Source: Bacilli bacterium (lineage in GTDB: Bacteria > Bacillota_I > Bacilli_A > RFN20 > DUOF01). From it: 64,000 nucleotides of DNA. Shown piece after piece: positions 21,778-39,386 of this stretch; positions within the stretch are counted from its first letter, which is position 1, and every line of letters starts with the position of its first letter. The notes beneath the pieces are model-generated. The model saw only the letters and a list, made by a program, of their open reading frames with translations. It did no database searches and was not told where the DNA came from. Made by a program: the position numbers and the translations under genes. The DNA is taken from the NCBI GenBank assembly GCA_045118975.1, contig JBGVCT010000016.1, positions 28,199-92,198 on the forward strand. The letters are read 5' to 3'.

Positions 21778-21860
21778 GGGGCTATGGCGGAACTGGTAGA
21801 CGCGCCAGACTTAGAATCTGGTGAGAGATCGTGGGAGTTCGAGTCTCCCTAGCCCCACCA
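21778..21860 (+). tRNA. tRNA-Leu (anticodon TAG), class II with long variable arm. Its 3' end is the integration site of the island.
   Basis: Acceptor GGGGCTA/TAGCCCC, anticodon stem-loop CCAGA-CTTAGAA-TCTGG, extra arm, T-loop GGAGTTCGAGTCTCCC, CCA. Confidence 0.85.
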
Positions 21861-21861
21861 A
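21845..21861 (+). repeat. attL core: 17-bp direct repeat CTCCCTAGCCCCACCAA (3' end of tRNA-Leu)
   Basis: Identical 17-mer recurs at 35150-35166. Confidence 0.8.
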
Positions 21862-22069: not shown

Positions 22070-23167
22070 CTAGTTCATCATATCATCTAATCTATTTACT
22101 ATTTCTTGTTGGTTAGTTGGGAATAAGTGAGAATAAACATCTAATGTAGTAGAAACATCTTGGTGACCTAATCTTTCAGATATAAATATAGGTGTTATTC
22201 CCATATTAATAAGTAAACTTGCATGAGAGTGTCTGAAGTCATGAATTCTTATTTGTTTAACTCCAGCTTCTTTACATTTCTTGTTTTTATATCTTTCAAG
22301 AGATGTTTCACTTATTGGTTTGATACCACCAAAGACAAAATATTGTTCTGTTAAACCAGGGAAACTCTTTTCTTGCCATATTCTATATTCATTTAGTATC
22401 AATAATAGTTTTTGTGGTAAATCAATAGTTCTAACTCCTTTAGATGTCTTAGGTGCTGTCAGGGTGTATGTGGTGTTATTTTCTTTATGTTTTTGTGTTA
22501 TGGTTTTTGTTATTCTGATATATTTGCTAAATCTATTAATATCTTCCCATGTTAGAGCTAAAGCTTCGCCTTTTCTCATTCCTGTGTAGTAAAGCAAGTT
22601 GAACAAAGTGTATTGTAAAATATCACCTTCACAGCATTTGATAAAATTATTGAACTCTTCTGGAGTCCATATAAGCATTATATTTTTAACTACTGAAGTG
22701 TTTTTTATATATCCAACAGCTTTTACAGGGTTATAGTTGATGTTATAGAATTTATCGGCATATTCGTATATATCTTTAAGTAGCCCTGTGATTTTATTTA
22801 CTCTTCCTATTGTAACGTTAGAACGTTTAATTGCATTTTGCCAATTTAAAACGTCATTGTTTGTGATCCTTTGAGGATATTTTTCTCCAAAGTAACCACG
22901 AATGTATTTGTCGATAACAATTTTTTTGCCATATATGGTAGCTATTTTGTATTTGTTTTCTATAAATTTTAAATATTCGTCGCACAGTTGATTCATTGTA
23001 ACTCGTTTTAAAGATTCTAATTCATATTCTACTTGTGCTTCAGCTTGCTGTGCTTCTTTCTTTGTTTTGAAACCTCTTTTTGCAAGAAATACATTTTTAC
23101 CACTTGCATCTTTCACTCGTTTTCTGTAATACCATGTATTTCTTTTCTCATCTTTGTGGACTGACAT
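22070..23167 (-). CDS. int: site-specific tyrosine integrase
   Basis: C-terminal catalytic domain with R...HDFRHSHAS...LGHQDVSTTLDVYSHL (R-H-R-Y signature). Adjacent to the tRNA att site. Confidence 0.88.
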   Translation of the reverse strand: MSVHKDEKRNTWYYRKRVKDASGKNVFLAKRGFKTKKEAQQAEAQVEYELESLKRVTMNQLCDEYLKFIENKYKIATIYGKKIVIDKYIRGYFGEKYPQRITNNDVLNWQNAIKRSNVTIGRVNKITGLLKDIYEYADKFYNINYNPVKAVGYIKNTSVVKNIMLIWTPEEFNNFIKCCEGDILQYTLFNLLYYTGMRKGEALALTWEDINRFSKYIRITKTITQKHKENNTTYTLTAPKTSKGVRTIDLPQKLLLILNEYRIWQEKSFPGLTEQYFVFGGIKPISETSLERYKNKKCKEAGVKQIRIHDFRHSHASLLINMGITPIFISERLGHQDVSTTLDVYSHLFPTNQQEIVNRLDDMMN

Positions 23168-24208: not shown

Positions 24209-24496
24209 ATGACCAGCAATCAAGAAAAAGAGAAGATTATTCTAAAAAGTAGTTTGACAAGAAAGGATATTATAGTTTTAACGGGATTAAACTATAAGGC
24301 AGTAACTAAGATATTCTTAAATATGAGAGAATCTATTTTAAAGAAACTTAGAAAAGATGATCCTGACTTTGAGTTCTACAATGTAAAGTATATTCCTACC
24401 ACGTATGCTTTACCTTACTTGAAGAAGTATGGAGTAGAAAGAGAAGTTATCTTGCTAAATGCTGACAGAGAAAGAAGTATTGTTATTGAACAATAG
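24209..24496 (+). CDS. small HTH protein (Cro/excisionase-like candidate)
   Basis: Predicted HTH LTGLNYKAVTKIF. Divergent from the repressor gene, with a TTGACA -35 in the intergenic region. Confidence 0.35.
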   Translation: MTSNQEKEKIILKSSLTRKDIIVLTGLNYKAVTKIFLNMRESILKKLRKDDPDFEFYNVKYIPTTYALPYLKKYGVEREVILLNADRERSIVIEQ

Positions 24497-25427
24497 ATTG
24501 AAGGAATCTTTAGACTATTTTCGACATAGAACAGATTTATATGAAACGCCTGAGATGGAACTTGCAATAAGTAACAAAGGATTTAATGTGTATGGGATAT
24601 ACTGTCTTTTGTGTGAAAAATCTAGTAGAAATATAAATAAACCTTTAATTTTAGATGACGATATGATGCATCTGTTAGCAAGAAAAGTGGGAATGTTGGT
24701 TGCAGAATTTAAAGAAAATGTAGAGGAACTAATCAAAAGGAATTTGTTTGATCAAAAAAGTTATTATGAAACTAGGGCAATAACTAATGGAATAATAGAA
24801 GAAGGTAAAGAAATAACTAAAAACAAACGAGCTTCAAAGCGTGGCGATTCCAAAAAGGAATTCCATTTTGATAAAATAGAACGCCAAACTAGCAAAACGT
24901 TTAATAATAGTAAAAGTAATATAAATAGTAATAGTAAGAATGATAGTAATAGTAACAGTAATAGTGAAATTAATATTTATAGTTATAGTAATATTGATAG
25001 TGAAACGGGGAATCCTATCAATATAACTGATAATGAGAATAATGAAGATTCATCGCTATTTGTTAATGGCGTTTTAATTGCTGATGCTAATGATCTTTAT
25101 AGAATCGTAGAAGAACTAATGGAAGCTAATATGAATGCAGGTATTAAAAATAGTATTGATTCATATATAGAAGAAAATGTTATTGCTTTAGCTAGGGCAT
25201 TAGAGAATTGTCAGAATTCTAAAACGCAAGCGATATCTTTTAATTATATCAAGAAGGCATATTCACAAGAAAAGTTAAAATTATGTTCAAAAAGTCTAAT
25301 TTTGTCGAATGATGTCGAAATCGAAAATGTAGAAGATGAAGTAGAAGAATTAGAACGTTTAAAAGAAGAAAGACGAAAACGTAAACTATTGCATGATGAA
25401 AATGATGATGAAAACAACTTTGATTAA
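24459..25427 (+). CDS. DUF4373 (Lin1244/Lin1753-like) N-terminal domain protein with an Asn/Ser-rich low-complexity linker. Phage replication-initiation associated.
   Basis: LDYFRHRTDLYETPEMELAISNKGFNVYGIYCLLCEKSSRN resembles the DUF4373 signature. Central NSNS repeats. Acidic C-terminus. Confidence 0.4.
   Translation: MLTEKEVLLLNNRLKESLDYFRHRTDLYETPEMELAISNKGFNVYGIYCLLCEKSSRNINKPLILDDDMMHLLARKVGMLVAEFKENVEELIKRNLFDQKSYYETRAITNGIIEEGKEITKNKRASKRGDSKKEFHFDKIERQTSKTFNNSKSNINSNSKNDSNSNSNSEINIYSYSNIDSETGNPINITDNENNEDSSLFVNGVLIADANDLYRIVEELMEANMNAGIKNSIDSYIEENVIALARALENCQNSKTQAISFNYIKKAYSQEKLKLCSKSLILSNDVEIENVEDEVEELERLKEERRKRKLLHDENDDENNFD
24895..25010 (+). repeat. AAT/AGT-rich simple-sequence tract encoding the (N/S)n linker
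   Basis: Near-tandem AATAGTAAT / AGTAATAGT units. Confidence 0.6.
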
Positions 25428-25610: not shown

Positions 25611-25639
25611 TTTACTTTTACTCAATATTATGCTATAAT
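25611..25639 (+). promoter_or_regulatory. candidate promoter of the three-gene operon
   Basis: -35 TTTACT, 17-nt spacer, -10 TATAAT at 25634-25639. Confidence 0.4.
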
Positions 25640-25657: not shown

Positions 25658-28474
25658 GTGAGTGTAGTGAATGAAGAAAATGGAATTTATTTAGTAATCA
25701 TAATTGCTGTAATAATTCTTTTGGGGTGGGGTTATAGTCATTACAGAGAACTATATAATACTCCATTACCTACTCGTTCATCTAAAAGAAAGGTTAAATA
25801 TAATTCTAAATCTAGTGTGTATGAAAAATTGTTTATAGATGAATATAATGTTTATATAGATTTGTTAAATAATATTGATTACTATGAGAAATCTATAAGT
25901 GCCATGTCTAAAAAAATAAAAGGATGTTATTTTTTTGATAAAGAACTATATTATGCACTGAAAAAGAGAAGAGAAGAATACAAAGGAAAACACATTAACT
26001 ATTTAAATCGTTTGAAATCATTTTCGATAACTAATATGTTTGTTCCAATCGGAAGTGATCAATACAACATATTCATTAAAATGTATTTTCCAAATAATGC
26101 TAATTCAAACTTTTTCCTTCATGAATTTTTTAATAGGAAATATCATTATATTGAATACAATGGTGCTTATATTGTCTTTTATGAAGAAATGATTTTTCAC
26201 ATCAATACTGAGAAAAATACATTAAGATGTTATCGCTATGATGAAGTTAATCTTGACTATTATGATAGTTTTGTAAAGAGAGTATCTGTAAAGAAAAATG
26301 AAGAAATCATAGGAGAAACATGGCTTCATGCTAGAAAAGACGGAAGTCCTGATAGACGATATAGTCAAAATTATAGAATGTATAAAGTTTTGAAAGTAAA
26401 AGTGTATATGATGAATTATGAAACTGACTTGGCATTCTACAACAAGAAAGATTTACAAGAATTTAAATCATTTATTACTTCTATAAAAAGATTAGAAAAA
26501 AATTATCGACATGATACAGAAAGTAATAGAAATTCTAATTCCGATAAAATTGCTACTAACATTAAAGAAGAAAATATTATCTATCAGACTACGCTTTTTG
26601 ATGTAGATATAGAAAAAACTATAGATGAAGTAGATACTTCAAGTTTAATAATAGATGTTGAACCTATTTCTGAAACCACTTCAATGGTCAGTGATTTTAT
26701 AGAAAACATTATTTCTGAGCAAAAGTGCATTGAATGGTGTTTTCACGATGTTTTTGGATTGGGACAAGTACAAAATAATGAAAAAGAAATATTGACAATA
26801 GAATTTTTAGGAGGAACAACTAGAAAAATAGCTCAAACATATGCTGGGTTAAAACATGTTAAAAGTTCTGTTGGAAATAGCTGTATCATTAAAACTGAAA
26901 AATATGGTTATGGTGTGATTATCGAAAATAGGGAAGATGGAGTTATAATAGCAGAGTTTAAAGATAAAAAACATGTTATATCAGGTCCAAATAGTTCATA
27001 TGAGATTATAGATGTTGCAACATTAAGTGAATCAACTAAAGTACCTAATGAACAAATTATATCTGAAGCTGAAGCAAAAGAAGAAGTAAAAGAAAGTAAG
27101 CAAGTTACTATCGGAACTCTTGTCACACAAATGAAATATGGAAAAGGTGTTATATACAAAATAGAAGATGCTTCATATACTATTGTTTTTGATTCAGGAA
27201 TCGAAAAGAAAGTATCAAAAAGTTCATGCAGTGTATTGGAATACTTTGATAAAGAAAAATATGATTCAAAATTAGAAAAATTAAAAAGATTTGATTATGT
27301 ATCTATGAAAAATATAGGCTATGGAATTATAGTTGATTTTAACTCTGACACAATTACAATAGCCTGGAAAAATAAAACAGTTGAAAAATATAATATTCTA
27401 GTTACATGTTTACTTACTAGAGTTGTATCTGAAAGAAAAATAGAGTTGTTGAATTTAAGCATTGGCGATTATTTGTATAGTAAAAAATATGGCTATGGAA
27501 GAATTGTGGAGTTTATAGTAGATAAGATAAAACTCAAATTTTATGATGTTCCTAAAGAGATTCTTGTAGGAATGGAGTATCTGCAAATACCATCACTACA
27601 ACAACTTGAACAATTTAAATCAGAACTTAGACAGTCAAGCCTATCAAGAGATCTTACTTTTTTTACAAGATTGGATAAAAAATATTATTCGTATAAAGAA
27701 GCTCTTGACATATATACAGAATACTTTAGTTCTAAAAAATCAAAAGAAAAAAGTATGGTTATTAGCACATATAAAAAAGCAGGATTCAATCTGGTCAAAG
27801 ATTTCTTTGTATATTGCGGATATTTAAAACTAGAGGATTGTATTTATGAAGAAATTATTTCTACAAAAATTTATAAATATGATTATTCTATTGAGAGTGA
27901 TACATATAATTATATCTTAGATAAGATGTGTAAGTCATATTATTGTTTGAAGTATGATGATGGAGTGTATTTCACGTTTAGCAAGTATGGCGAATTCGGG
28001 TTTAATTTCTATGAACTTTTAAGTTTTATTGGAAAATTATTGGATTTTATAAAAGAACATAAATTTGTTTCAATTGTTTACTTGAAAAATAACTACGAAG
28101 GCTATTTGCCAGACGAAGGATTGTTACTGGCTATAATAAATTCTATTAGCATGATAAAATCGAGAAAAATGGGAAATTCATATATTTATCATTTGAAAGA
28201 CGGTCAAACAGTAAAGAAAGATTTGATGTATAAATTTATAGTAGAAGAATTTAATTGTATAAATAGTAAAAGTTGTGATATATATGATTTTATGGAGCAT
28301 TTAAATATAAAATACGAATTTGAATTTGAATATTCTACATTTGTTTTATTGTTAAATGAATTAGAAGATACTAATATTTATTATAGTGAAGATACAGAAA
28401 AAATATATAGCACTAAAGAAGAGTTTTATTTGGAGGTTTATGGAAATGGAAACGAAGAAAATAATAGCAATTAA
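25658..28474 (+). CDS. membrane-anchored 938-aa protein with four C-terminal Tudor-like KYGYG repeats (candidate defence component A). GTG start at 25658 or 25667.
   Basis: N-terminal TM helix IYLVIIIAVIILLGWGY. Repeats KYGYGVIIEN / KYGKGVIYKI / NIGYGIIVDF / KYGYGRIVEF spaced 60-75 aa. Stop overlaps the next gene. Confidence 0.5.
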   Translation: MSVVNEENGIYLVIIIAVIILLGWGYSHYRELYNTPLPTRSSKRKVKYNSKSSVYEKLFIDEYNVYIDLLNNIDYYEKSISAMSKKIKGCYFFDKELYYALKKRREEYKGKHINYLNRLKSFSITNMFVPIGSDQYNIFIKMYFPNNANSNFFLHEFFNRKYHYIEYNGAYIVFYEEMIFHINTEKNTLRCYRYDEVNLDYYDSFVKRVSVKKNEEIIGETWLHARKDGSPDRRYSQNYRMYKVLKVKVYMMNYETDLAFYNKKDLQEFKSFITSIKRLEKNYRHDTESNRNSNSDKIATNIKEENIIYQTTLFDVDIEKTIDEVDTSSLIIDVEPISETTSMVSDFIENIISEQKCIEWCFHDVFGLGQVQNNEKEILTIEFLGGTTRKIAQTYAGLKHVKSSVGNSCIIKTEKYGYGVIIENREDGVIIAEFKDKKHVISGPNSSYEIIDVATLSESTKVPNEQIISEAEAKEEVKESKQVTIGTLVTQMKYGKGVIYKIEDASYTIVFDSGIEKKVSKSSCSVLEYFDKEKYDSKLEKLKRFDYVSMKNIGYGIIVDFNSDTITIAWKNKTVEKYNILVTCLLTRVVSERKIELLNLSIGDYLYSKKYGYGRIVEFIVDKIKLKFYDVPKEILVGMEYLQIPSLQQLEQFKSELRQSSLSRDLTFFTRLDKKYYSYKEALDIYTEYFSSKKSKEKSMVISTYKKAGFNLVKDFFVYCGYLKLEDCIYEEIISTKIYKYDYSIESDTYNYILDKMCKSYYCLKYDDGVYFTFSKYGEFGFNFYELLSFIGKLLDFIKEHKFVSIVYLKNNYEGYLPDEGLLLAIINSISMIKSRKMGNSYIYHLKDGQTVKKDLMYKFIVEEFNCINSKSCDIYDFMEHLNIKYEFEFEYSTFVLLLNELEDTNIYYSEDTEKIYSTKEEFYLEVYGNGNEENNSN

Positions 28475-29654
28475 TACAGGAAGAAAAGAAAAAATGGTTA
28501 TAGGCGGGCACACTGTATTAGAAGATGTATATAAGGTCGATATTTCTACTTTATATTACAATGATGAAAATGGTAGAATAGCAACTTTTATTGCAGAATA
28601 TAAATCCAAAAGTGATGTTGCTATAAACGAGCTTTCATTTGATGAATATAATGAAACTATAATGCAATTTATCAAAGACTCTAGTAACAAAGATAAATAT
28701 AAAACTACTAAGGAAGATATAAAGAAAAACGGGCAATTGAGAATTGGTATCATTTTAGATGATGGTAGAGTAATTGACGGAAACAGACGTTTTACTTGTT
28801 TACGTGAATTATATAACGAAACCGGGGATGAAAGATATCAATATTTCGAATGCGTTATTTTAAAAGTACCTACAACTCTAAATGATAAAAAAATGATTAA
28901 ATCATTAGAATTGAAATATCAATTTGGAGAAGATGCTAGAGTAGATTATAATGCCATTGATAAATTAGTTGATGTATATAATCTTTTAGTGGGACCAAGT
29001 AGAATTTTTTCAATAAAAGAATATCGTGATCGTGTAAATAATCAAATCAAAGAAACTGATATAAAAAGAATGATGGTTAAAGCTGAAGTTATGTATGATT
29101 ATTTGGACTTTATAGGTATGAAAGAAAGATACGATATTGCTAGAGACTATAAATTAGATGGTCCAATTCAAGAAATAGCAGCACTAAAGTCTTCTTTATC
29201 AGACTTTGAGTGGAGCGAAGTAAGGCCAATTATGTATAAAGCCATGAAAGATGCAACTGGTGATAGAACAAGAGAAGTTCGTAGTCTAATAAAGGTATAT
29301 AAAAATAGTCCGTCAGAATTTGAAAAGATAAGAAATAATTTCTTAAATATCGAATTTAAGCAAGAACAAATCAAACATTCACAAGCAGAAGCAACCGAAG
29401 TTGTAACTAAAAAAGAAGAATTATCAGATTTAAAAGCAGAATATAAAGAACTTGTTAAGGATAGTATAGCTAAAACAGGAATAGATATGGCTAGAAAAAA
29501 ACAAAATGAGTTATTAAAAGGTGTAGTTAAGAAAATGTCTGAAATAGATAAAATATCGTTAAGACACTTACCTGAAGACTTGAAAAAAGAATTCATGCAA
29601 TATTTAAGTCAGTTAGAAATGGAAATTGCAATTTGTAAGAAGGAAATAGAATAA
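28440..29654 (+). CDS. ParB/DndB(DGQHR)-like N-terminal domain protein with DGNRR motif and a coiled-coil C-terminal half (candidate defence component B)
   Basis: VDISTLYYNDENGR ... LRIGIILDDGRVIDGNRRFTCLREL matches ParB-N/sulfiredoxin-fold boxes. Start ATG at 28440 with GGAGG RBS (track ORF starts upstream within the previous gene). Confidence 0.55.
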   Translation: MEMETKKIIAINTGRKEKMVIGGHTVLEDVYKVDISTLYYNDENGRIATFIAEYKSKSDVAINELSFDEYNETIMQFIKDSSNKDKYKTTKEDIKKNGQLRIGIILDDGRVIDGNRRFTCLRELYNETGDERYQYFECVILKVPTTLNDKKMIKSLELKYQFGEDARVDYNAIDKLVDVYNLLVGPSRIFSIKEYRDRVNNQIKETDIKRMMVKAEVMYDYLDFIGMKERYDIARDYKLDGPIQEIAALKSSLSDFEWSEVRPIMYKAMKDATGDRTREVRSLIKVYKNSPSEFEKIRNNFLNIEFKQEQIKHSQAEATEVVTKKEELSDLKAEYKELVKDSIAKTGIDMARKKQNELLKGVVKKMSEIDKISLRHLPEDLKKEFMQYLSQLEMEIAICKKEIE

Positions 29655-32227
29655 TGTTAGAGAAAGTTCATTTCAAATCATTATACAATTCTAAACAAGA
29701 TGATGTTATAAATGATTTTTATATTCCCGCATTATCTCAATCTAATGGTTATGACAGAATAAGCGCGTATTTTGATTCTAAAATTTTAAGAATGTATGCG
29801 GCGGGTCTAGAAAATATAAAAGATGGCGGGCGTGTTAGATTTATTTTTTCATGTGACCTTGATGAAGAAGATTATAACTTAATGAAGCAAGGATATGATT
29901 TAAGAGAAAAAATAAATTCAAAGTTACTTAATTCTATTTCAGATGAAGATGTTAATATTGATGTTTCAAATTTGGCGTATCTTATAGCTATTGGCGTAGT
30001 AGATATTAAGATTGCTTTTACTACTAAAGGAATTTTTCATGATAAATATGGGGTCTTTTCTGATTCTGAAGGAAACAAAGTATATTTTAGGGGATCGAAT
30101 AACGAAACTCTAGCTTCAATTATGTATAATTATGAAAGTTTTGAGACGTCTTGCTCATGGAATTGTGATGCGCGTGAAGAATTGAAAATTGACAATGCTG
30201 TTAGAACCTTTGAAGCTATATGGAATGATGAATTTCCAGAACTATATGTAATTCCGCTACCTGAATGTGTGAAAGAAAAACTTATAGGATATTCTTCTAA
30301 AGAAATATCTTCAATATATTATAAAAAAGAAAATTGTGCAATTTTTGATGTTGATGAACAATATCATTATACGTTGAATAATTTTTTAGATAACAAGTCG
30401 TTACTGGATACTCAAAGTAGTTTGTATAAGTATATTATACATCCTTATGTTGATTCTTACATTTCATATTCTGATACATATGTATTGAAGAATATTGGTT
30501 ATATGCAATTGAATAAACTGATTGTAGAAGTTAAAAAATATGCTTCACAATTAGGTTTTGATGTATACGTTGCTCCAAGACTAAGAAGGTTAATGTATGA
30601 AAGAGATATTTATATTGATAAGCGAAAAGACTTGGGAATTGCTATTAAACATAGAGACCCAAATTTAAATGAAGATTTCGAAAAATTTAAAAATATTATT
30701 AGTCAAGAGATGGTTAGAGAACTTCGTGAACCACAACAATGGGATGCTTATCATATAGCTAAAATGGTAAAATCTGCAAACTTTTCTGTTCCGGGAGCTG
30801 GTAAAACAACAATTGTATATGGTGCCTATGCCTATTTGGCAGCTATCAATAAAATTGATAAAATAGTTATGATTGGGCCTAAAAACTCATTTAGAGCATG
30901 GAAACAAGAATTTGTAGCAAACTTTGGTAATAAAAAAGAATTAAATGTATTAGATATACAAGCTAATAATGAACTTGACAAGAAATCTATGCTTAAGTAT
31001 CAATCAGATGATAAAAATTTAATTTTAGTTAATTATGAAAGCGTGCAAGGTGTGCTAGAAGAATTAACTTCGGCAATAAACGATAAAACATTGTTGGTAT
31101 TTGATGAAATTCATCGAATTAAATCTGTTAAGGGAAAAAGAGCAGAAGCTTGCCTTCGTTTAGCTAATAAAGCTAATTATAAAGTTGCTTTAACGGGAAC
31201 TCCATTACCAAATGGGTATGATGATATATATAACATGCTAAATATATTATTTTGCGATGAGTATAGTACATTTTTCGGATTTAAAGTTAACTATTTAAGA
31301 GAAGCTAGGTCTATATCTGCTTCACAAGATGCAATAAACAAGAAAATATTTCCGTTTTTTTGTAGAACTACGAAGAATGATTTACAAGTTCCGCCACCAT
31401 GCCAAGATGATACAGTTACTGGATATCTAGAAATGAATGATATTGAAGAAGAAATATTTTCTATAATTTATCGAGAATATTCATATAACACATTGATTTT
31501 ATATGTTCGTTTAACGCAGGCATCTTCTAATCCTGCATTATTGCTTAAATCAGTAGATAAAAATGATTTAGCTGATTTTGATGGGGATTGCGATGAAGAT
31601 GATTATGGTTTGTGGGATGAAATAGAGAAAGAAGATCATAAATTATCGAAAAAGGATTATGATTTTATCTTTAATAATATGACAACAAGAAAAATAGATA
31701 GATGTTGTGAGATAATTGAAGATAGGGTTCGCAATGGTGAAACTGTAGTAGCTTGGGGAATTTATATTGATAGTTTGAATTTGGTTTATGATAAATTGAC
31801 TTCAAAGGGAGTGAAAGCTGTAATAATAAGCGGAGCAACTCCTCAAGAAGTTCGCGATGAATATATTAATATGTTTTGTAATAAGGAAATAGATGTTTTG
31901 ATAACTAATCCACATACTTTAGCTGAGTCTGTTTCTTTGCATAAAACATGCCACTTTGCTATATATTTTGAGTATGATTTTAATTTAACTCATATGGTGC
32001 AATCTAGAGATAGAATTCACAGATTGGGGTTACCTGAAGGTCAAAAAACAGAATATTGTTATATGACGCTAAACTCAAAAACTAGTGAATATAATACTAT
32101 TGATGTAAAGATTTATGAAAGACTAAAAGAAAAAGAAAGAATAATGTTAGAGGCAGTTGAAAACAACGACATTGCTGTCGTTGAAGATGATTATATGGAT
32201 AATATTAATTTTATTTTACGTCGTTAA
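29654..32227 (+). CDS. PLD-like (HKD) nuclease domain fused to SNF2-family helicase (candidate defence component C)
   Basis: N-terminal HDKYGVFSD...GSNNET (HKD-like). SNF2 motifs PGAGKTT (I), LVFDEIHR (II), ALTGTPLPNGYDD (III), QSRDRIHRLG (VI). Start overlaps the upstream stop (TAATG). Confidence 0.75.
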   Translation: MLEKVHFKSLYNSKQDDVINDFYIPALSQSNGYDRISAYFDSKILRMYAAGLENIKDGGRVRFIFSCDLDEEDYNLMKQGYDLREKINSKLLNSISDEDVNIDVSNLAYLIAIGVVDIKIAFTTKGIFHDKYGVFSDSEGNKVYFRGSNNETLASIMYNYESFETSCSWNCDAREELKIDNAVRTFEAIWNDEFPELYVIPLPECVKEKLIGYSSKEISSIYYKKENCAIFDVDEQYHYTLNNFLDNKSLLDTQSSLYKYIIHPYVDSYISYSDTYVLKNIGYMQLNKLIVEVKKYASQLGFDVYVAPRLRRLMYERDIYIDKRKDLGIAIKHRDPNLNEDFEKFKNIISQEMVRELREPQQWDAYHIAKMVKSANFSVPGAGKTTIVYGAYAYLAAINKIDKIVMIGPKNSFRAWKQEFVANFGNKKELNVLDIQANNELDKKSMLKYQSDDKNLILVNYESVQGVLEELTSAINDKTLLVFDEIHRIKSVKGKRAEACLRLANKANYKVALTGTPLPNGYDDIYNMLNILFCDEYSTFFGFKVNYLREARSISASQDAINKKIFPFFCRTTKNDLQVPPPCQDDTVTGYLEMNDIEEEIFSIIYREYSYNTLILYVRLTQASSNPALLLKSVDKNDLADFDGDCDEDDYGLWDEIEKEDHKLSKKDYDFIFNNMTTRKIDRCCEIIEDRVRNGETVVAWGIYIDSLNLVYDKLTSKGVKAVIISGATPQEVRDEYINMFCNKEIDVLITNPHTLAESVSLHKTCHFAIYFEYDFNLTHMVQSRDRIHRLGLPEGQKTEYCYMTLNSKTSEYNTIDVKIYERLKEKERIMLEAVENNDIAVVEDDYMDNINFILRR

Positions 32228-33608
32228 TAATGGACAAAATAAATGATCTATCCAACCAGAAACAGTGTTTAGTATAATATGCTAAACCTGTTTTTTTATC
32301 TGGAACTGGTAAAATGTATCCACCACCACTTTTGTCTATACCAGTAGAGTCATGTGGTCTAACGTGACAAATGTGATTAAATGTACTTCCTGGGAAGTTA
32401 GTAAAATATTTTCCTGCTGAATATGAATTTACTATATCACCAGATTTGATAATTTTTTGAGTGTATTCCCATGTTTCTTTTACTTCTTTATCAAGTATTT
32501 CTAAAGGCATGTTCCAAAATTTAATTTTATCTAGATAGTAAACGCCATTTTTCTTCTTGAAAACAACAAACATATATTTAGTTGTATCAAATTTTTCTCT
32601 TAATTCAGAGGATTCCCACGTTTGCTCTGCAATATCTATATATTTAAATGTAGGAAAAGACATATGCTCTTTAATTTTGCCATTTTCTTCAATTCTAATT
32701 GTTTTTAATTCTAGATTTGCTTTTCTAAATTCATCGGTATTATTGATGTGACCGTTGAAACCTAACATTGCGCCAGTTAATACATTAAATCTGCTTTTTA
32801 GGGCAGGATTATTAGGTATGCCAAATTTTTCAAATAACTCGACTTCAGACATACCATAGTAAGGTTTTAATTTTTGATCCATAATTGCTTCAAATGTTGA
32901 ATTTTTAAGTTCTTCAAAAGAAACTATAGATTTACATTTTTCTCCAATAAGATTTTTATTTATTATTGTATTGATATATGAAGGCTTTAAGCAGTATGCT
33001 CTTTGTTTGGCTAATTTATCTGAAGCAGGTTGTTTTCTATAACTGCTTGCAGCATCTTTTCCTTTGGTGCAAGCGCCTAAATACATTGTGTCTGCTTCTG
33101 ACAAAGTATCAGCTAGTCCGTTATTAATTTTATCTACTATTAATTGCCAATCGTATTTTATTATTTCTAAATCTTCTTGAGAAAATGAATGAAGAATTGA
33201 ATCGATAAGATAAAAGTCGAAATCCTCTTTTTCTTCGTATAAATAAAACATTAATAATAGAGACATGTTTTTCTTCCAAAAAGTGCTATCTTCAAATGGG
33301 ATATTATATTCCAACATATAGTCAATGATATTAAGAACAAGTCTTTCTTTAGCTACATACTCATTATTTTTTAGTTTTTTTAGACCAGTTACTTTTAATT
33401 CTACGCCTAAATCAGCAAAATCAGCTTCAGGGCGAGAATTAGGAGGATAGTGAAAGACTCCTTCTTCAATAATTTGACCAATAACACCTTTATTGTTTTT
33501 TGCTAATGAGCGGTTATTAATATTGTATTCTGATATTCTATGACCACTTGTTTGCTTAGCAATTTCAAGTAGTTCGTTTGCTGAACTATATTTTGGTATT
33601 GTATTCAT
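32211..33608 (-). CDS. Sau3AI-like type II restriction endonuclease (tandem MutH/Sau3AI-fold domains, probable GATC specificity)
   Basis: Long collinear similarity to Sau3AI: GVELK..KKLKN..KERLVLNII, DYEIIKYDWQLI, LGACTKG, KQPASDKLAKQRAY and C-terminal ICHVRPH. Confidence 0.8.
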   Translation of the reverse strand: MNTIPKYSSANELLEIAKQTSGHRISEYNINNRSLAKNNKGVIGQIIEEGVFHYPPNSRPEADFADLGVELKVTGLKKLKNNEYVAKERLVLNIIDYMLEYNIPFEDSTFWKKNMSLLLMFYLYEEKEDFDFYLIDSILHSFSQEDLEIIKYDWQLIVDKINNGLADTLSEADTMYLGACTKGKDAASSYRKQPASDKLAKQRAYCLKPSYINTIINKNLIGEKCKSIVSFEELKNSTFEAIMDQKLKPYYGMSEVELFEKFGIPNNPALKSRFNVLTGAMLGFNGHINNTDEFRKANLELKTIRIEENGKIKEHMSFPTFKYIDIAEQTWESSELREKFDTTKYMFVVFKKKNGVYYLDKIKFWNMPLEILDKEVKETWEYTQKIIKSGDIVNSYSAGKYFTNFPGSTFNHICHVRPHDSTGIDKSGGGYILPVPDKKTGLAYYTKHCFWLDRSFILSIINDVK

Positions 33609-33746: not shown

Positions 33747-34991
33747 GTGAATAAAAGTGTAGTTGAATTATTTGCTGGTGTAGGTGGTTTTAGAGTAGGA
33801 CTTAATAAAATCAAAAATATAGATAACAATGGTAAAGCAGTAGAAAATGGTGATTGGGATTTTGTGTGGGCTAATCAATGGGAACCTGCAACAAGAACTC
33901 AAGATGCTTTTGATTGTTATATAAAAAGATTTGGTAAAGATAGTTGTTCTAATGAAGATATAACTACTGTTATTAAAGAAAACATTCCTGACCATACATT
34001 ATTAACTGGTGGATTCCCTTGCCAAGATTACTCTGTTGCTAGAACAAAATCTGGCGAAAAAGGAATTGAAGGTAAAAAAGGTGTTTTATGGTGGCAAATC
34101 AATGACATCTTATTAGCTAAAAAGCCTCCATTTGTTTTATTAGAAAATGTAGATAGACTAATAAAAGCTCCTGCTAGACAAAGAGGTAGAGATTTTGGAA
34201 TTATTTTAAGATGTTTAAATGATGCTGGTTACTGTGTTGAATGGAGAGTAATTAATGCTGCAGAATATGGACATCCTCAAAAGAGAAGAAGAACATATAT
34301 ATTTGCATATAACAAAAATACAAACTATTACACTCAACAATGTAATGTGACTCCAGAAGAAATCTTATTAAATAAAGGTATGTTTGCTAAATCATTTCCT
34401 GTATCTAAGTTAGCTACTAAAGTTAGCCAAACAGATTTAAGTTCTAATTCATATAATGATTTAGTAGATATGACAGCAGAATTTAAATTCAACTTTGAAA
34501 ATAGTGGATACTTATGTGATGGTATTGTATATACAGCTAAAACTCAACCTGTATTGGAAGATCCAATCACATTATTCCAAATTAGAGAACAAGACAGCGT
34601 TGATGCAAAATATCAATTAACGAAGAATATAGATAAGTTCATATATTTAAAAGGAAGTAAAAAAATACCTAGAGTATCTAAAACTGGTATGGAATATAAT
34701 TATTCTGAAGGCAAAATGTCTTTCCCAGATAGATTAGATATGCCAGGTAGAACAATGCTTACAAGTGAAGGAACAGTAAATAGAAGTTCTCATGTAATAA
34801 GCGACTTACAAACTGGTATGTTAAGAATTATTACTCCAAAAGAAGCAGAAAGACTTAACCAATTCCCAGATAACTGGACTAATTCAGGAATGACAGATTC
34901 AAAGAGATACTTCATGATGGGAAATGCATTAGTTTGTGGCGTAATTGAAAAAATTGGTAATCAATTAAATGAAATTATAGACTGCGAATAA
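33747..34991 (+). CDS. DNA (cytosine-5)-methyltransferase, cognate of the Sau3AI-like endonuclease
   Basis: Motif I ELFAGVGGF, motif IV GGFPCQDYS, motif VI LLENV, motif VIII QKRRR. Confidence 0.9.
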   Translation: MNKSVVELFAGVGGFRVGLNKIKNIDNNGKAVENGDWDFVWANQWEPATRTQDAFDCYIKRFGKDSCSNEDITTVIKENIPDHTLLTGGFPCQDYSVARTKSGEKGIEGKKGVLWWQINDILLAKKPPFVLLENVDRLIKAPARQRGRDFGIILRCLNDAGYCVEWRVINAAEYGHPQKRRRTYIFAYNKNTNYYTQQCNVTPEEILLNKGMFAKSFPVSKLATKVSQTDLSSNSYNDLVDMTAEFKFNFENSGYLCDGIVYTAKTQPVLEDPITLFQIREQDSVDAKYQLTKNIDKFIYLKGSKKIPRVSKTGMEYNYSEGKMSFPDRLDMPGRTMLTSEGTVNRSSHVISDLQTGMLRIITPKEAERLNQFPDNWTNSGMTDSKRYFMMGNALVCGVIEKIGNQLNEIIDCE

Positions 34992-35149: not shown

Positions 35150-35166
35150 CTCCCTAGCCCCACCAA
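35150..35166 (+). repeat. attR core: second copy of CTCCCTAGCCCCACCAA
   Basis: Exact 17-mer match to the tRNA-Leu 3' end at 21845-21861, not part of a complete tRNA here. Confidence 0.8.
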
Positions 35167-35311: not shown

Positions 35312-36772
35312 GTGAAAAAAGTAAATTTATTTGATATTTCTAAACTGCATGATAACAAAGCTATCAGTGAGATATATGTAAGATATTTGGCTGACTTTCC
35401 AGATGAAAAACAATATAGACACGAAGAAATTAAATATATAAATGAATTATTGAAAATACTTAATATAGAAACTGAAGAAGTAGAAGATTTTTATTATGGT
35501 TATGAAGTTCCACAATTAAATAAGGAGTTTGATTTACTTAAGGTTACAAAAGAGTCTGTATTAAACATAGAACTAAAAGGAACCGTGGATGATGAGTTGA
35601 AAATACTAGAACAGTTGAAGAAAAACTTGCACTATTTAAAACTTCTAAATAGAAAATGCTATCAGTTCACCTATTTATCTAAAGAACAAAAATTGTTCAA
35701 ATTGAATAAAAACAAACTAGAGGTCATAGATTTTGATGAATTGTATGAAGTAATTAAATCAATATCTCAAGAGGACATTGACGAAGTTTACTTAGATGAA
35801 TATTATAAACCAAATGTTATTTTGGTTTCTCCACTTAATAATCCTAAAAGATTTATAAGTAATTCATACTTACTAACTGAAAATCAGGAAAATATAAAAA
35901 AAGAAATAATTAATGATTTAGAAATTAATAACAAGAAATATTACGCTATTCATGGGAATGCAGGAACTGGAAAAACATTACTACTATATGATATTGGGAA
36001 AACACTTTCTGAAAATAAAAATATTCTTCTTATCCATTCTGGTATTATTTGTAAAGGACATAGCTTTTTGAATAAAAATATGGAAAAATTTAAGATAATT
36101 TCAGCAAAAGATTTAAAGTACAAAGATTTAAGAAATGTTGATGTTTTGCTTGTTGACGAAGCTCACAGATTGTATAGAGAAGATTTAGAAAAAATAATAA
36201 AATGGGTAAATAAGAAAGTTTACTCTTGTATTTTTTCTTTTGATGGAAAGCAAGTCTTATCTTATAGTGAAGAACGAAGGCAAACAACAGAAAATATAAA
36301 ATTCATATGCAAAGGAAGATTACACAAATTAACAAATAAAATTAGAACAAATAAAGAAATTTCCTTATTTGTACAATGTTTATTTGATTTGAGTAAGTAT
36401 AGGGATGAATACAAATTTGCTAACGTTAAAATTGTTTATGAGCCAGACAAACTTAAAGCGGTTGAAAGGGCAAAGAATGCTTTGGGTTACACATATATAT
36501 CATATACAGGTTCTTTTTATAATCATGATATAGACTACCAATTTTCTCAACATAATACTCACAATGTCATTGGTCAAGAATTCGATAGGGTATGTATGAT
36601 CATGGGAAATGAATTTTATTATAAAAACAATAAATTAAAAGGATATACTCATCCCACTCCGGACTATATTTATACTCAATTGTTATATCAAGGATTAACG
36701 AGAGCTCAAACTGGTGTGCTTTTAATAATAACTGATATTGAGCTTTTGAAAAGCATATTAAACCTGATTTAG
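35312..36772 (+). CDS. NERD/PD-(D/E)xK-like N-terminal domain fused to an SF1 (DUF2075-like) P-loop ATPase/helicase. Nhi-like candidate defence nuclease-helicase.
   Basis: N-terminal FDLLKV...VLNIELKG (D...E-x-K). Walker A HGNAGTGKT, Walker B LLVDEAHRL, motif VI-like GLTRAQTGVLLI. GTG start with GGTGGTGA RBS and a TATAAT at 35287. Confidence 0.55.
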   Translation: MKKVNLFDISKLHDNKAISEIYVRYLADFPDEKQYRHEEIKYINELLKILNIETEEVEDFYYGYEVPQLNKEFDLLKVTKESVLNIELKGTVDDELKILEQLKKNLHYLKLLNRKCYQFTYLSKEQKLFKLNKNKLEVIDFDELYEVIKSISQEDIDEVYLDEYYKPNVILVSPLNNPKRFISNSYLLTENQENIKKEIINDLEINNKKYYAIHGNAGTGKTLLLYDIGKTLSENKNILLIHSGIICKGHSFLNKNMEKFKIISAKDLKYKDLRNVDVLLVDEAHRLYREDLEKIIKWVNKKVYSCIFSFDGKQVLSYSEERRQTTENIKFICKGRLHKLTNKIRTNKEISLFVQCLFDLSKYRDEYKFANVKIVYEPDKLKAVERAKNALGYTYISYTGSFYNHDIDYQFSQHNTHNVIGQEFDRVCMIMGNEFYYKNNKLKGYTHPTPDYIYTQLLYQGLTRAQTGVLLIITDIELLKSILNLI

Positions 36773-36821
36773 AAAGAAAAAGTTGAATTTTATTAGATTT
36801 GTAATGAATGGAGGAAAATAA

Positions 36822-38066
36822 ATGAAGGTATCCAGCGCAATAAGTGAAGTATTAAACGTATTGAAAATCCCTAATGAAGAAAGAAGACTACTTCATGATA
36901 TTTATATAATTAAATATAGTGATAATATTAAATCGGAAAAAGATTATGATAAATTAAGAAATAATCCAGAATATCATCTTGTTGGTAGAGAAAAAATACG
37001 AAAGTATAACTCGGCATTTGAGCACTTATATAATTCTTTAGGTCTTGAGGTGGCAGGACTATCATCAAATGAATTTAGAAAGAAAATTGAGCAATTACTA
37101 TTTTTTGACAATTTTACTGAGGAAAAAATTAGAGAAAAATTGAAAAGTATACCTCTGCAACACTATCATTGTGTAGATAAAATATATGGGATAAACATAG
37201 AAAATGATATGCTAGTATTAGGAAAATACACATTATTAAATCCTATTTATATATCTCATTACTTAAAAGAAAAAATAGAAGCAAAAAACCATCACTATAT
37301 AGATGATTTTATAGATACAGAAGAAAATGCAGATAAATTCATATACGTTATTTGTGATTATTCAGGTAAAGGCGTTGATTTACCAAGGGAAAAATTTGAT
37401 ATGGATTTAGCGACCTTTATAAATATTCTTAGATATATGATTCGAATAAAAAATTCAAGACTTAACATAGATTTAAGTGCATATAATCCAAGGCAGCTAA
37501 ATAAATTTCAATTTTCTGATGAGGGTAGTATCTATAGTAGTTTTAAGATAGATAGAAAAGATGTGACAATTACATTGTATGAAGACTATATTACAGATAT
37601 TGATTTGGGTTTTAATAAAATTTGGGAAATAACTAATAAAGATAACAAAAATGATTTTGAAAATAGAATTATGCTTGCTATAGATTGGGTTGGACAGTCT
37701 CTTCAAGAAAATAATGATGATATGTCAATATGTAAACTTGCTTTTGCATTTGAGTCATTATTTCATGTGCAAAAAGATAATATGATAAGCCCAAGTATTC
37801 AATATAGTATTGCAGAGAGTGTCGCTTTCCTAATTGGAAAAACGCCTGAAGAAAGGATAAATATAAAAAAAAGATTTAAGGAATTTTATTCTCATAGATC
37901 TTCAATTGTTCATGGTGGAAGTTCTAAAAAGAAGAGTGATTATGACTATTTCTTGTCATTATTAATAGGGTCCATTTCGTATTTATTGACTGATGAAAAT
38001 TTTGCGAATTGTAAAAACGGAGAAGATATATCCAATATTCTTGATATGAACTTTAAGTTTAAATAA
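36822..38066 (+). CDS. hypothetical protein with C-terminal HEPN-like helical domain (Rx4HGG motif)
   Basis: C-terminal helices ending in FYSHRSSIVHGGSS (R-x4-H, the HEPN RNase signature). Co-directional, 50 nt after the upstream gene. Confidence 0.4.
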   Translation: MKVSSAISEVLNVLKIPNEERRLLHDIYIIKYSDNIKSEKDYDKLRNNPEYHLVGREKIRKYNSAFEHLYNSLGLEVAGLSSNEFRKKIEQLLFFDNFTEEKIREKLKSIPLQHYHCVDKIYGINIENDMLVLGKYTLLNPIYISHYLKEKIEAKNHHYIDDFIDTEENADKFIYVICDYSGKGVDLPREKFDMDLATFINILRYMIRIKNSRLNIDLSAYNPRQLNKFQFSDEGSIYSSFKIDRKDVTITLYEDYITDIDLGFNKIWEITNKDNKNDFENRIMLAIDWVGQSLQENNDDMSICKLAFAFESLFHVQKDNMISPSIQYSIAESVAFLIGKTPEERINIKKRFKEFYSHRSSIVHGGSSKKKSDYDYFLSLLIGSISYLLTDENFANCKNGEDISNILDMNFKFK

Positions 38067-38374
38067 AAATTGAGAGCTTTATTTAGCTAAATAAAGTTTA
38101 AAATAGAAATAATAACCTTTTAAATATAACAGTTCGTTTTCTATATTTTGAGTTCCACCATATCTAAATAATTACTCTGATACAATCGTGTATTGGAGTT
38201 TTTTTATACCAATTCATAGTAAAATAGGAAAGGTTTGGATGTTTCAAGTGTATTTGTCCTTAAGTAATGTTTAAATGATGCAGTTGTAAGGACTCTAATA
38301 TAGCGAGGTTTAGTTTAAGTATCATTATCTGTATTATGTAGGCGCGTAATGGATCAAGATCAAAAAAACAAGCA

Positions 38375-38402
38375 AAAAAGGCATCCGAAGATGCCTTTTT
38401 TG
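38375..38402. terminator. bidirectional rho-independent terminator
   Basis: GGCATCCGAAGATGCC hairpin flanked by an A-run upstream and a T-run downstream. Confidence 0.65.
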
Positions 38403-38540
38403 AAAACCTCCACAGTCTATTACACGAGCAATAGATAGCTTTGAATACACACATATATTACTTAATTTTACACTATTTGTCAAATATAAGTTATAATAAT
38501 GTGTACAATATATAGTATGAACTGTTGTTGTAAATTTATA

Positions 38541-39386
38541 CTAAATCATAAAATATATTTTTAAATTTTCTTTTATCTTTTGAATTTCCTCTTCAGTTAA
38601 TTCAATAGTTAGTTGGGTGTTTTTATCAATCAAAGGTTTTACAAAACGTTTAATACTGATTCGTTTTCCGTCATTTAATTTAATAATATTTGTTTTTCCG
38701 TCAATAATTTTTTTAATATTATAATAGTAATTCTTTTTTGGGATTTTGCTAGTTATTGGAAAAACAAAATATGAACTATCTTCTTTATTTTCTGTATTAA
38801 CGTGTTCCTTCCAAACTAAGACAGGTCTTAATTTGTTTATTTCAGAACCTACGTTATTTCCAATATAAGCAAAGTAAATTCTATATTGTACAATATCAAG
38901 TTTAGATTTGTATTTTGAAAATTTAATATCTTCTTTTGTAATGGCCCATTCTAGATATTTAAGCATTTGCTCTGTTAGTGTTATATCATTCAATTTTCCA
39001 TCAATGAGATTGCTGCCTATGGTTGTATTACACTTTGTACCAAAGTCTATCAATAATTTATCTACTATTGATTTGGTGACTAAATCAAATTCATATGGTG
39101 TAGCTATTACTTCTTTTCCTTTTAAATGAAGTTGACGTTGCATTTGATGTTTGTTTATTTTTTCATATGTTCCAAGTATGTAAACTTTATTTAAATTGTT
39201 TATAGTAATATATTTAGAAGTTGATTCAGGTTCAACTAATTTTGCCATTAAGACAAAAGGTTTAACATCAGTATCTCCAAGATAAATTCCTATTTGTTCT
39301 TCACCATTTTCGTCTAGATATGAATATATATTTTTAGGAAATAATTGTACTTTCATTTTTGTCACCTCTAATATTAAGTATATCAT
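38541..39386 (-). CDS. MazF/PemK-like toxin domain (C-terminal ~120 aa) fused to an unknown ~160-aa N-terminal domain
   Basis: C-terminal region IYFAYIGNNVGSEINKLRPVLVW...YFVFPITSK...IIKLNDGKRISIKRF aligns with the MazF G-SEQ-G-RP-VV and downstream motifs. Confidence 0.5.
   Translation of the reverse strand: MIYLILEVTKMKVQLFPKNIYSYLDENGEEQIGIYLGDTDVKPFVLMAKLVEPESTSKYITINNLNKVYILGTYEKINKHQMQRQLHLKGKEVIATPYEFDLVTKSIVDKLLIDFGTKCNTTIGSNLIDGKLNDITLTEQMLKYLEWAITKEDIKFSKYKSKLDIVQYRIYFAYIGNNVGSEINKLRPVLVWKEHVNTENKEDSSYFVFPITSKIPKKNYYYNIKKIIDGKTNIIKLNDGKRISIKRFVKPLIDKNTQLTIELTEEEIQKIKENLKIYFMI

Follow-up and report, generated by a model that had tools for sequence, protein, structure and literature searches.

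The window analysed here, a stretch of 64,000 nucleotides (nt) from the genome of a Bacilli bacterium (contig JBGVCT010000016.1), contains a gene, called A in the following, whose product is predicted to carry five tandem Tudor/SH3-like barrels behind an N-terminal membrane helix. It is directly followed by a gene for a ParB-like protein (B) and by a gene in which an HKD nuclease domain is fused to an SNF2 helicase (C), with a C5 cytosine DNA methylase nearby. As judged from the sequence, the predicted five-copy arrangement on a membrane protein is new for a known Tudor domain. The operon context of A (the three genes with the methylase) is also new and more informative than the repeats; it had not been seen in the earlier note, a model's reading of the letters of this DNA. 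A, B and C probably form an undescribed restriction-like module, in which A is most likely a membrane-tethered adaptor or sensor, its binding partner being proposed by homology. The Tudor barrels would bind protein in the manner of those of the helicases PcrA and UvrD, with the beta subunit of RNA polymerase (RNAP), or a partner with a similar hairpin, as the target and with avidity gained from five copies; a probability of about 0.42 is assigned to this reading. It is favoured because the Pfam families matched by the repeats are RNAP interaction Tudors, because the residues of the PcrA interface are conserved in the family, and because the array is not basic.

The features of gene A are listed below by their positions in the window, with the strand in brackets; bit scores of the repeats refer to a hidden Markov model (HMM) built from 32 repeat units of other proteins, with no window sequence included, and residue positions are given in amino acids (aa).

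25611..25639 (+): promoter-like site TTTACT-17-TATAAT with a TG extended -10, just upstream of gene A (consensus scan)
25658..28474 (+): gene A, multidomain open reading frame (ORF) of 938 aa with a GTG start (ORF list)
25682..25738 (+): N-terminal transmembrane helix, aa ~9-27 (Kyte-Doolittle 2.27; the sole strongly hydrophobic stretch of A)
25748..26557 (+): N-domain, aa ~31-300, basic, with an isoelectric point (pI) of 9.3 (phmmer domain table)
26726..26875 (+): Tudor-like repeat 1, aa 357-406 (20.3 bits; DUF3553, E 0.012; Tudor_1_RapA, E 0.22)
26876..27025 (+): Tudor-like repeat 2, aa 407-456 (5.4 bits; the most degenerate, KYGYG core at nt 26900)
27110..27259 (+): Tudor-like repeat 3, aa 485-534 (18.9 bits; the copy used for AlphaFold)
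27287..27442 (+): Tudor-like repeat 4, aa 544-595 (23.7 bits; Tudor_1_RapA, E 0.041)
27461..27613 (+): Tudor-like repeat 5, aa 602-652 (15.7 bits; 71% DNA identity to repeat 4 over 49 nt)
27620..28471 (+): C-domain, aa 655-938, ending in YYSEDTEKIY, the constant, family-defining module (alignment A2, 21 sequences)

The four KYGYG-type motifs that the earlier note had placed at 26885-27600 are present. They read KYGYGVIIEN, KYGKGVIYKI, NIGYGIIVDF and KYGYGRIVEF, start at aa 415, 493, 552 and 610 (nt 26900, 27134, 27311 and 27485), and lie 234, 177 and 174 nt apart, in agreement with the spacing of 180-230 nt given there; the consensus proposed for them, [KN]-[YI]-G-[YK]-G-x-I-[VI]-x-[FI], describes them only approximately. 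The number of copies, given as four, is actually five: the one overlooked is the first, at 26726-26875, whose motif HDVFGLGQV (aa 365, nt 26750) is the most canonical H-x-x-F-G-x-G signature of the five. It is also the sole copy in the window to keep the His of the H-x-x-[FW]-G-x-G signature.

The external-unit HMM was also run on 300 shuffles of A, for which the maximum score was 8.2 bits and the 99th percentile 3.7. By this test the repeats are beyond chance, four of them securely and the second weakly; since its 5.4 bits lie below the shuffle maximum, repeat 2, which has no Pfam match, rests on its KYGYG core and on its register. At the DNA level the best pair of repeats is the one formed by copies 4 and 5, and to judge by this identity the copies are old.

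Class of the repeats and remaining parts of protein A

Thirty-seven repeat units were collected from the A family (alignment A1) and scanned against Pfam unit by unit. Their consensus reads x-G-D-x-V-x-H-x-x-F-G-Y-G-x-I ... I-x-F ... K-x-I. The family PF21196 (PcrA_UvrD_tudor) was matched by 14 of the 37 units (best E 5.6e-5), CarD_TRCF_RID and DUF3553 by five each (best E 3.5e-5 and 0.0087, respectively) and Tudor_1_RapA by three; all four are RNAP interaction domains (PMC5397179, PMC8318588). The relatives of A, scored as whole proteins, reach 16.7-21.8 bits with PF21196, under its cutoff of 23.9. Among the 21 families matched by the 37 units, none is an SH3b cell-wall-binding family (SH3_3, SH3_4 and the like), a kind of match that the earlier note had named as evidence against its own assignment.

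That assignment, to the Tudor domain at the C-terminus of UvrD/PcrA helicases (DUF3553-like), is supported at the level of the family. In the profile-profile comparison that had been suggested for it, here run as hhalign, alignment A1 matched the C-terminal domain (CTD) of Thermus thermophilus UvrD with 95.4% probability (E 1.8e-8), and a profile of the five window repeats alone matched the UvrD CTD with 59% (E 9e-5). The single N-terminal unit of the relative P0021 matched the T. thermophilus UvrD CTD (7egt_B) over its full length by phmmer, with an E-value of 9e-5.

Structure prediction, also suggested there, did not return an unrelated fold. Repeat 3, one of the five, was modelled by AlphaFold with the 37-unit alignment as a five-strand, Tudor-like barrel with a pLDDT of 82.5; a single-sequence model of aa 346-671 reached a pLDDT of 34. 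When the repeat 3 model was compared with the PDB by Foldseek, the matches included the KOW domain of Spt5 (TM 0.77), the UvrD CTD (6yi2, TM 0.69; 7egt, TM 0.71 by query and 0.74 by target) and the Tudor domains of 53BP1, PHF1 and PHF19. Its matches in BFVD were unnamed small barrels and were uninformative. Taken at family level, these comparisons place the window repeats in the PcrA/UvrD C-terminal Tudor (DUF3553-like) class, by a call that is transitive via the relatives.

The N-terminal membrane anchor reported in the earlier note is present as well and recurs in relatives. On its N-terminal side the helix is flanked by acidic residues with no Lys or Arg (K/R), and on its C-terminal side by a K/R-rich segment. 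The distribution of K/R is the same in the relatives P0003, P0005, P0008, P0012, P0015 and P0024, and seven relatives have K/R on the C-flank. Given this distribution, the positive-inside rule predicts an N-out/C-in orientation with the bulk of A in the cytoplasm. Many relatives with the same combination of Tudor units and C-domain have no membrane segment and are soluble.

Between the helix and the five barrels, the basic N-domain is followed by an acidic linker. The core of the N-domain (aa ~160-280, 26135-26497) contains the motif WLHARKDGSPDRRY, of the WLHxRKDGSPDRRY type, and constitutes an unnamed domain, which matches phrog_17982 at 1.5e-7 (PHROG) and is common to DUF4236-type proteins ending in FtsK-gamma, DnaJ, SH3b or TerB (P0025, P0026, P0030, P0033, P0037, P0039). 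In the relatives P0002 (aa ~350-950) and P0015 (aa ~360-800), an N-domain like that of A is followed by a long BspA-type LRR_5 array; the array of P0002 is in turn followed by four Tudor repeats. The conserved C-domain of A, of about 280 aa, has no relative in Pfam or in a PDB profile search. A second in-frame GTG, at 25667, yields a form of A of 935 aa that is identical to the NCBI database protein P0001. The promoter-like site upstream is weak evidence, such sites being not enriched over shuffles in this AT-rich DNA.

The family was assembled by an exhaustive phmmer search, which gave 41 relatives of A. A word-indexed protein search with A returned the self-match only and missed all 40 relatives found by exhaustive phmmer; the same kind of search with the C-domain alignment gave zero matches, although P0001 is contained in the same database. 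Pfam, run on the whole A protein, produced only a sub-threshold Tudor_1_RapA match (aa 552-589), no PADLOC or NCBIfam model matched A, and A found no match in a viral-contig scan or by tblastn against phage and plasmid records.

The A-B-C module in the window and in related loci

The genes that follow A in the window are these:

28386..29654 (+): gene B, a ParB/Srx-superfamily protein with the motif IDGNRRF (Pfam ddrB-ParB, E 3.8e-4; NCBIfam ICE ParB, 3.5e-5)
29654..32227 (+): gene C, a fusion of an HKD (PLD-family) nuclease domain with an SNF2 helicase (Pfam SNF2-rel_dom, 3.5e-22)
32211..33608 (-): type II restriction endonuclease of the Sau3AI/MutH family (Pfam MutH, 1.6e-36; PADLOC REase_II, 1e-93)
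33747..34991 (+): C5 cytosine DNA methyltransferase, partner of the endonuclease (Pfam DNA_methylase, 3e-59; PADLOC MTase_II, 2e-164)

Protein C carries the HKD motif HDKYGVFSD...GSNN from aa 129, GAGKT at aa 381 and DEIH at aa 484, so that both the Walker A and the DExH motif are intact. Among PADLOC models it matches PbeA over aa 2-220 (2.2e-67), and also ZorD and DrmD; its score with the NCBIfam model phospholipD_antiphage (4.7e-19, 68 bits) is far under the curated cutoff of 1100 bits. The HKD motif is kept in six of the seven C proteins checked, namely in the window and in five of six from other loci. B has 445 homologues, some of them named ParB N-terminal domain protein in the source records, and a PDB profile search with B gave no match. 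Neither A nor B is represented by a model in the 2023 release of PADLOC. With the first GTG taken as the start of B, the frames of A and B share 89 nt (28386-28474), and similar overlaps occur in L001, L002 and L004; the true start of B is possibly an internal ATG near 28440. The overlap may reflect translational coupling, or it may be an artefact of the conserved C-terminus of A read in another frame.

Seven loci encoding relatives of the C-domain (L001-L007) were searched by tblastn with the genes that neighbour A in the window. The order A-B-C was found in all seven, with B 36-52% and C 42-63% identical to the window proteins, and the Sau3AI/MutH-like endonuclease and the C5 methylase adjoin in all of those with enough flank. 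A locus was counted as an A-B-C module when an A protein with a C-domain of the YYSEETEKIY type was directly followed by a ParB-like B and then by an SNF2-type C, an arrangement present in the window and in L001-L007, L008-L010, L012 and L013. Through B, further loci with this cluster were fetched from Staphylococcus equorum, Clostridium perfringens, Bacillus and two metagenomic contigs, and their A-position proteins carry the C-domain of the window protein with E-values from 1e-31 to 1e-82.

Over all related loci, a C5 methylase, usually together with a Sau3AI-like endonuclease, adjoins nearly every locus with enough flank. The methylase does so in ten related loci with enough flank and in the Lactiplantibacillus plantarum plasmid, the endonuclease in L001, L003, L004, L006-L010, L012 and L013; in L001 and L007 its stop overlaps the start of A. 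Further defence genes lie around the clusters, McrBC and AspBHI/Mrr in related loci, AbiO/Nhi and MazF in the window. The module occurs in Staphylococcus, Clostridium, Bacillus, Enterococcus, Exiguobacterium and Lactiplantibacillus, both on chromosomal islands and on plasmids, and in the records its proteins are annotated as hypothetical, ParB-family or sigma-factor-like only.

Across these loci the C-domain of A is constant, and the head in front of it is swapped among Tudor modules, modules like the C-terminal domain of the RNAP alpha subunit (alpha-CTD) and modules like region 4 of sigma factors. The head has a single Tudor in L001, L006, L007 and P0016-P0029, whereas L003 and L013 have two or three. 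RNA_pol_A_CTD-like repeats plus Sigma70_r4 form the heads in S. equorum and C. perfringens. P0028 and P0032 have a sigma-4-like helix-turn-helix (HTH) head, as apparently does the Bacillus locus, for which this is read from the sequence with no Pfam family on record. The A protein of L012 has the membrane helix only, and those of L004 and L005 have no recognisable head. One Enterococcus plasmid record labels its A "sigma factor-like helix-turn-helix DNA-binding protein".

The A-position proteins are encoded at 4887-8000 in L008, 5285-7999 in L009, 5582-8017 in L010 and 5356-7965 in L014; those of S. equorum, C. perfringens and Bacillus carry the C-domain of the window protein, and for that of the Enterococcus casseliflavus plasmid the alpha-CTD-like and/or sigma-4 modules are given by its PGAP label. 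In L008 (S. equorum, 9199-11064) and L014 (E. casseliflavus, 9186-11051) C is only 621 aa long and has no HKD nuclease domain, and in S. equorum an McrBC pair follows C. Two loci, L011 (6001-11899) and L015 (2070-8847), consist of B, C and a C5 methylase, with neither A nor the Sau3AI-like enzyme. L011 has two small ORFs at the position of A; L015 is the L. plantarum plasmid, where a Vsr gene is nearby. Given these two loci, the minimal core may be methylase, B and C.

What the Tudor array may bind

In the working model, the A-B-C cluster would be a restriction-like module directed against phages. Through its constant C-domain, A would dock to B, to C or to both, and the variable head would set where or when the motor nuclease acts. 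In the variant of the window, the head would be tethered at the cytoplasmic face of the membrane and would display five Tudor barrels, acting mainly as protein-protein modules. By homology, their likeliest partner would be a beta-hairpin on RNAP beta or on a similar protein, and the five copies would raise avidity, so that the nuclease-helicase could be coupled to transcribing complexes or to another protein cue near the membrane. Weak, non-specific contact with DNA by the same barrels may add to this.

The Tudor domain of Geobacillus stearothermophilus PcrA is an RNAP interaction domain, and mutation of H681, W684, K712 or L714 lowers its binding to RNAP; the Tudors of CarD, of RapA and of Mfd, where the domain is called the RNAP interaction domain (RID), bind RNAP as well (PMC5397179). 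The site recognised by the PcrA Tudor is a beta-hairpin in RNAP beta with a TGE motif, and the same motif is present in UvrB (PMC8318588). The four PcrA residues were placed on the columns of alignment A1 by the hhalign register to T. thermophilus UvrD, a mapping that is itself inferred. At these columns the family has H in 27, F/Y in 35, K/R in 26 and I/V in 32 of the 37 units; the five window repeats have His in one, an aromatic residue in four, K/R in three and I/V in all five.

Several observations weigh against this protein-binding reading or against the module built around it. With His in repeat 1 only and K/R in three of five, a PcrA-type interface may be degraded in the window protein. 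No window repeat passes a Pfam threshold alone, which makes the domain call transitive, through the relatives: the best, repeat 1 with DUF3553 (PF12073), scores 15.6 bits where 20.3 are required, DUF3553 matches none of the other repeats, and PF21196 is not matched by the window repeats even at E<=10. The Foldseek E-values, 0.028 at best, are not significant alone, as expected for a barrel of 50 residues. The helicase-interaction motif [VIL]DxxTGE[VIL][VILT] is absent from all six frames of the window, outside which the host rpoB and uvrB genes lie. The predicted topology of A has the positive-inside rule as its only basis, and a defence function is suggested by domain content and neighbourhood. 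Finally, the alpha-CTD and sigma region 4 modules present in other A proteins in place of Tudors bind DNA, a fact which favours the first of the alternatives considered below.

According to that alternative, a refined form of the idea in the earlier note and possible but not probable, the repeats are a multivalent array of low specificity for DNA or RNA, which would hold DNA at the membrane or load the SNF2-HKD protein on DNA, and which might read C5 methylation. The CTD of Escherichia coli UvrD does bind single- and double-stranded DNA, weakly and non-specifically, by loops and aromatic residues (dissociation constants of 3.8 and 1.9 uM, respectively; PMC7585439), and avidity would tighten such a micromolar affinity. 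The position of the Tudors is elsewhere filled by an alpha-CTD-like helix-hairpin-helix and a sigma-4 HTH, both DNA binders, three conserved aromatic columns (F/Y in 35, F/W in 32 and Y/F in 21 of the 37 units) could stack on bases, and nearly every module has the C5 methylase linked to it. The earlier note had described the Tudor class as typically nucleic-acid-binding. The documented role of the class is, however, mainly contact with RNAP beta or UvrB, DNA binding being weak, and the homologous Mfd RID binds RNAP but not DNA (PMC7585439). Moreover, the array in A is net neutral (41 K/R against 42 D/E, pI 6.4) and its linkers are acidic (pI 4.0-4.6), the residues conserved in the family are those of the protein-binding face of PcrA (PMC5397179), and no Pfam nucleic-acid-binding family outscored the RNAP interaction Tudors over the 37 units.

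A more doubtful possibility is that the head of A acts as a decoy, mimicking host modules that phages target (the PcrA/UvrD Tudor, alpha-CTD and sigma region 4), so that a phage take-over factor bound to it would activate B and C. Defence systems often combine a constant effector module with sensor heads that vary, and here all three swapped heads derive from, or dock to, the transcription machinery, with the C-domain and the B-C pair constant. Nothing speaks directly for a decoy, however: no phage factor is known to us that targets the Tudor domain of PcrA/UvrD, it is not obvious why a decoy would need five copies and a membrane anchor, and a recognisable head is lacking in some A proteins (L004, L005, L012).

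The module might also serve the mobile element that carries it rather than defence, in partition, membrane attachment of DNA, establishment or anti-restriction, with B as a ParB-type partition protein and A as a membrane tether. B is annotated as ParB, RepB or Spo0J in several records, B-C pairs are found on plasmids in 66 records, and the window cluster is cargo of an integrative element with its own replication initiator (see below); combinations of ParB and SNF2 are reported for polyvalent proteins of phages and conjugative elements (PMC5512222). Such a service is nevertheless unlikely in view of the HKD nuclease motif conserved in six of seven C proteins, of the several loci that are chromosomal and outside obvious mobile elements, and of the tie to the restriction-modification pair with other defence genes around; no ParA partner or centromere-like repeat was seen.

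That the repeats are extracytoplasmic SH3b-like domains, binding the cell wall or a surface from a signal-anchored protein, is very improbable: they do have an SH3-like fold, two relatives bear BspA-type leucine-rich repeat arrays, often found on surface proteins, and one distant N-domain relative ends in SH3_3, but no SH3b family was matched by the 37 units, the helix, at the very N-terminus, is not preceded by a positive n-region and is followed by K/R, so that most of the protein is predicted to be cytoplasmic, many relatives with Tudor units and C-domain lack a membrane segment, and the partners are DNA enzymes.

A wider proposal is put forward tentatively. A-B-C and the C5 methylase, usually with a Sau3AI-type endonuclease, would be an undescribed anti-phage system of Firmicutes, in which the heads of the targeting subunit (PcrA/UvrD Tudor, alpha-CTD, sigma region 4), taken from or docking to the transcription machinery, couple the HKD-SNF2 nuclease to RNAP or sense the take-over of RNAP by a phage; the variant of the window would do so at the inner membrane face, by means of its five Tudor copies. 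So far, the PcrA/UvrD-type Tudor has been known in one copy, appended to the C-terminus of a repair helicase, which it brings to RNAP or UvrB. A five-fold membrane-tethered array would mean that the module has been redeployed outside DNA repair, as the variable head of a subunit always accompanied by ParB-like and HKD-SNF2 proteins. The alpha-CTD-like and sigma-4 substitutes suggest that a restriction-like system is connected with the transcription apparatus, which would be an unusual means of target selection. A functional assignment would clean up many records, and the system is compact and testable.

The integrative element and comparison with known systems

The cluster formed by A-B-C and the restriction-modification pair is cargo of an integrative element inserted at a tRNA-Leu gene and bounded by putative att sites. 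Its landmarks are as follows:

21778-21860: tRNA-Leu (tRNA scan)
21845..21861 (+): putative attL at the 3' end of tRNA-Leu, an exact 17-nt repeat, CTCCCTAGCCCCACCAA (repeat search)
22070-23167 (-): integrase (Pfam)
35150..35166 (+): putative attR, second copy of the 17-nt repeat (repeat search)

The 17-nt direct repeats bound an element of 13.3 kb, and short arm-like repeats are located just inside its ends (21923/35026 and 21951/35012). Besides the cargo, the element contains the integrase, an HTH protein, a 95-aa protein and a replication initiator of the Lin1244_N/phrog_2562 type. The Lin1244_N/replication-initiator-like protein, at 24459-25427, contains a long insert of low complexity, rich in Asn and Ser (NSKSNINSNSKNDSNSNSNSEINIYSYSN). 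Immediately beyond the putative attR, an AbiO/Nhi-like gene (35312-36772; PADLOC 1e-128) is followed by a gene for a 414-aa protein matching phrog_28161 (36822-38066) and by one for a 281-aa protein with a C-terminal MazF/PemK domain (38541-39386). The genes at 35312-39386 may be a second defence islet in tandem with the first.

A literature search for a system combining ParB, SNF2, HKD and a Sau3AI-type enzyme found no description; its coverage was incomplete and it is not proof of novelty. Several known systems were considered as identities of the cluster and rejected. PbeABCD combines PbeA with the CxC ABC ATPase (PbeC), the DndE-like PbeD and a small protein (PbeB); of these only the PbeA-like HKD domain is present, and neither an ABC ATPase nor DndE occurs in the cluster here or in 13 related loci. 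DISARM has a core of the helicase DrmA and of DrmB (DUF1998), with DrmC and a methylase; DrmA and DrmB are missing from the neighbourhood, which offers only partial matches to DrmD and DrmMII. The core genes of ARMADA and of the DUF499-centred systems among the BREX-related (BR) ones (YprA helicase, DUF499, PglZ/PglX) are absent.

In PbeABCD and the CxC-ABC-ATPase systems, PbeA is an HKD endoDNase fused to a superfamily 2 (SF2) helicase (PMC10853773). C shares this fusion, with a PbeA-type HKD domain (2e-67) and an SF2 helicase of the SNF2 kind; the partners differ, PbeC, PbeD and a link to phosphorothioation on one side, A, the ParB-like B and a link to C5 methylation on the other. DISARM, ARMADA and the BR systems have a similar parts list (an SNF2 motor, an HKD/PLD nuclease and a linked methylase), but A and B have no counterpart in them, and PADLOC gives only partial-domain matches.

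As for the repeats, the PcrA/UvrD Tudor (PF21196; PDB 5DMA, 6YI2, 7EGT) and DUF3553 are, like those of the window, five-strand barrels of about 50 aa, and the signature V-x-H-x-x-[FWY]-G-x-G-x-[IV] ... F ... K-x-[IL] of the former is common to the A family. The PcrA/UvrD domain is present in one copy, at the C-terminus of a superfamily 1 (SF1) helicase, after a disordered linker, whereas A has five internal tandem copies and no helicase domain. The array of A is on a membrane-anchored protein, and its copies are divergent from the PcrA/UvrD Tudor, with the His in one of five and scores under the Pfam cutoff. The Tudors of Mfd/CarD (PF02559) and RapA (PF18339) belong to the same fold class as the repeats of A, with no significant sequence match to those of the window.

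In RapA the Tudors are fused to the motor, whereas those of A are on a separate protein encoded beside the SNF2 helicase and would act in trans; C, unlike RapA, has an N-terminal HKD nuclease. A parallel is found in the Type-2 BR helicases: RapA-like SNF2 helicases bear N-terminal Tudors, which in the Type-2 BR enzymes are replaced by HKD (PMC12839542). Here the HKD domain is likewise on the helicase, C, and the Tudors come from the upstream gene, A.

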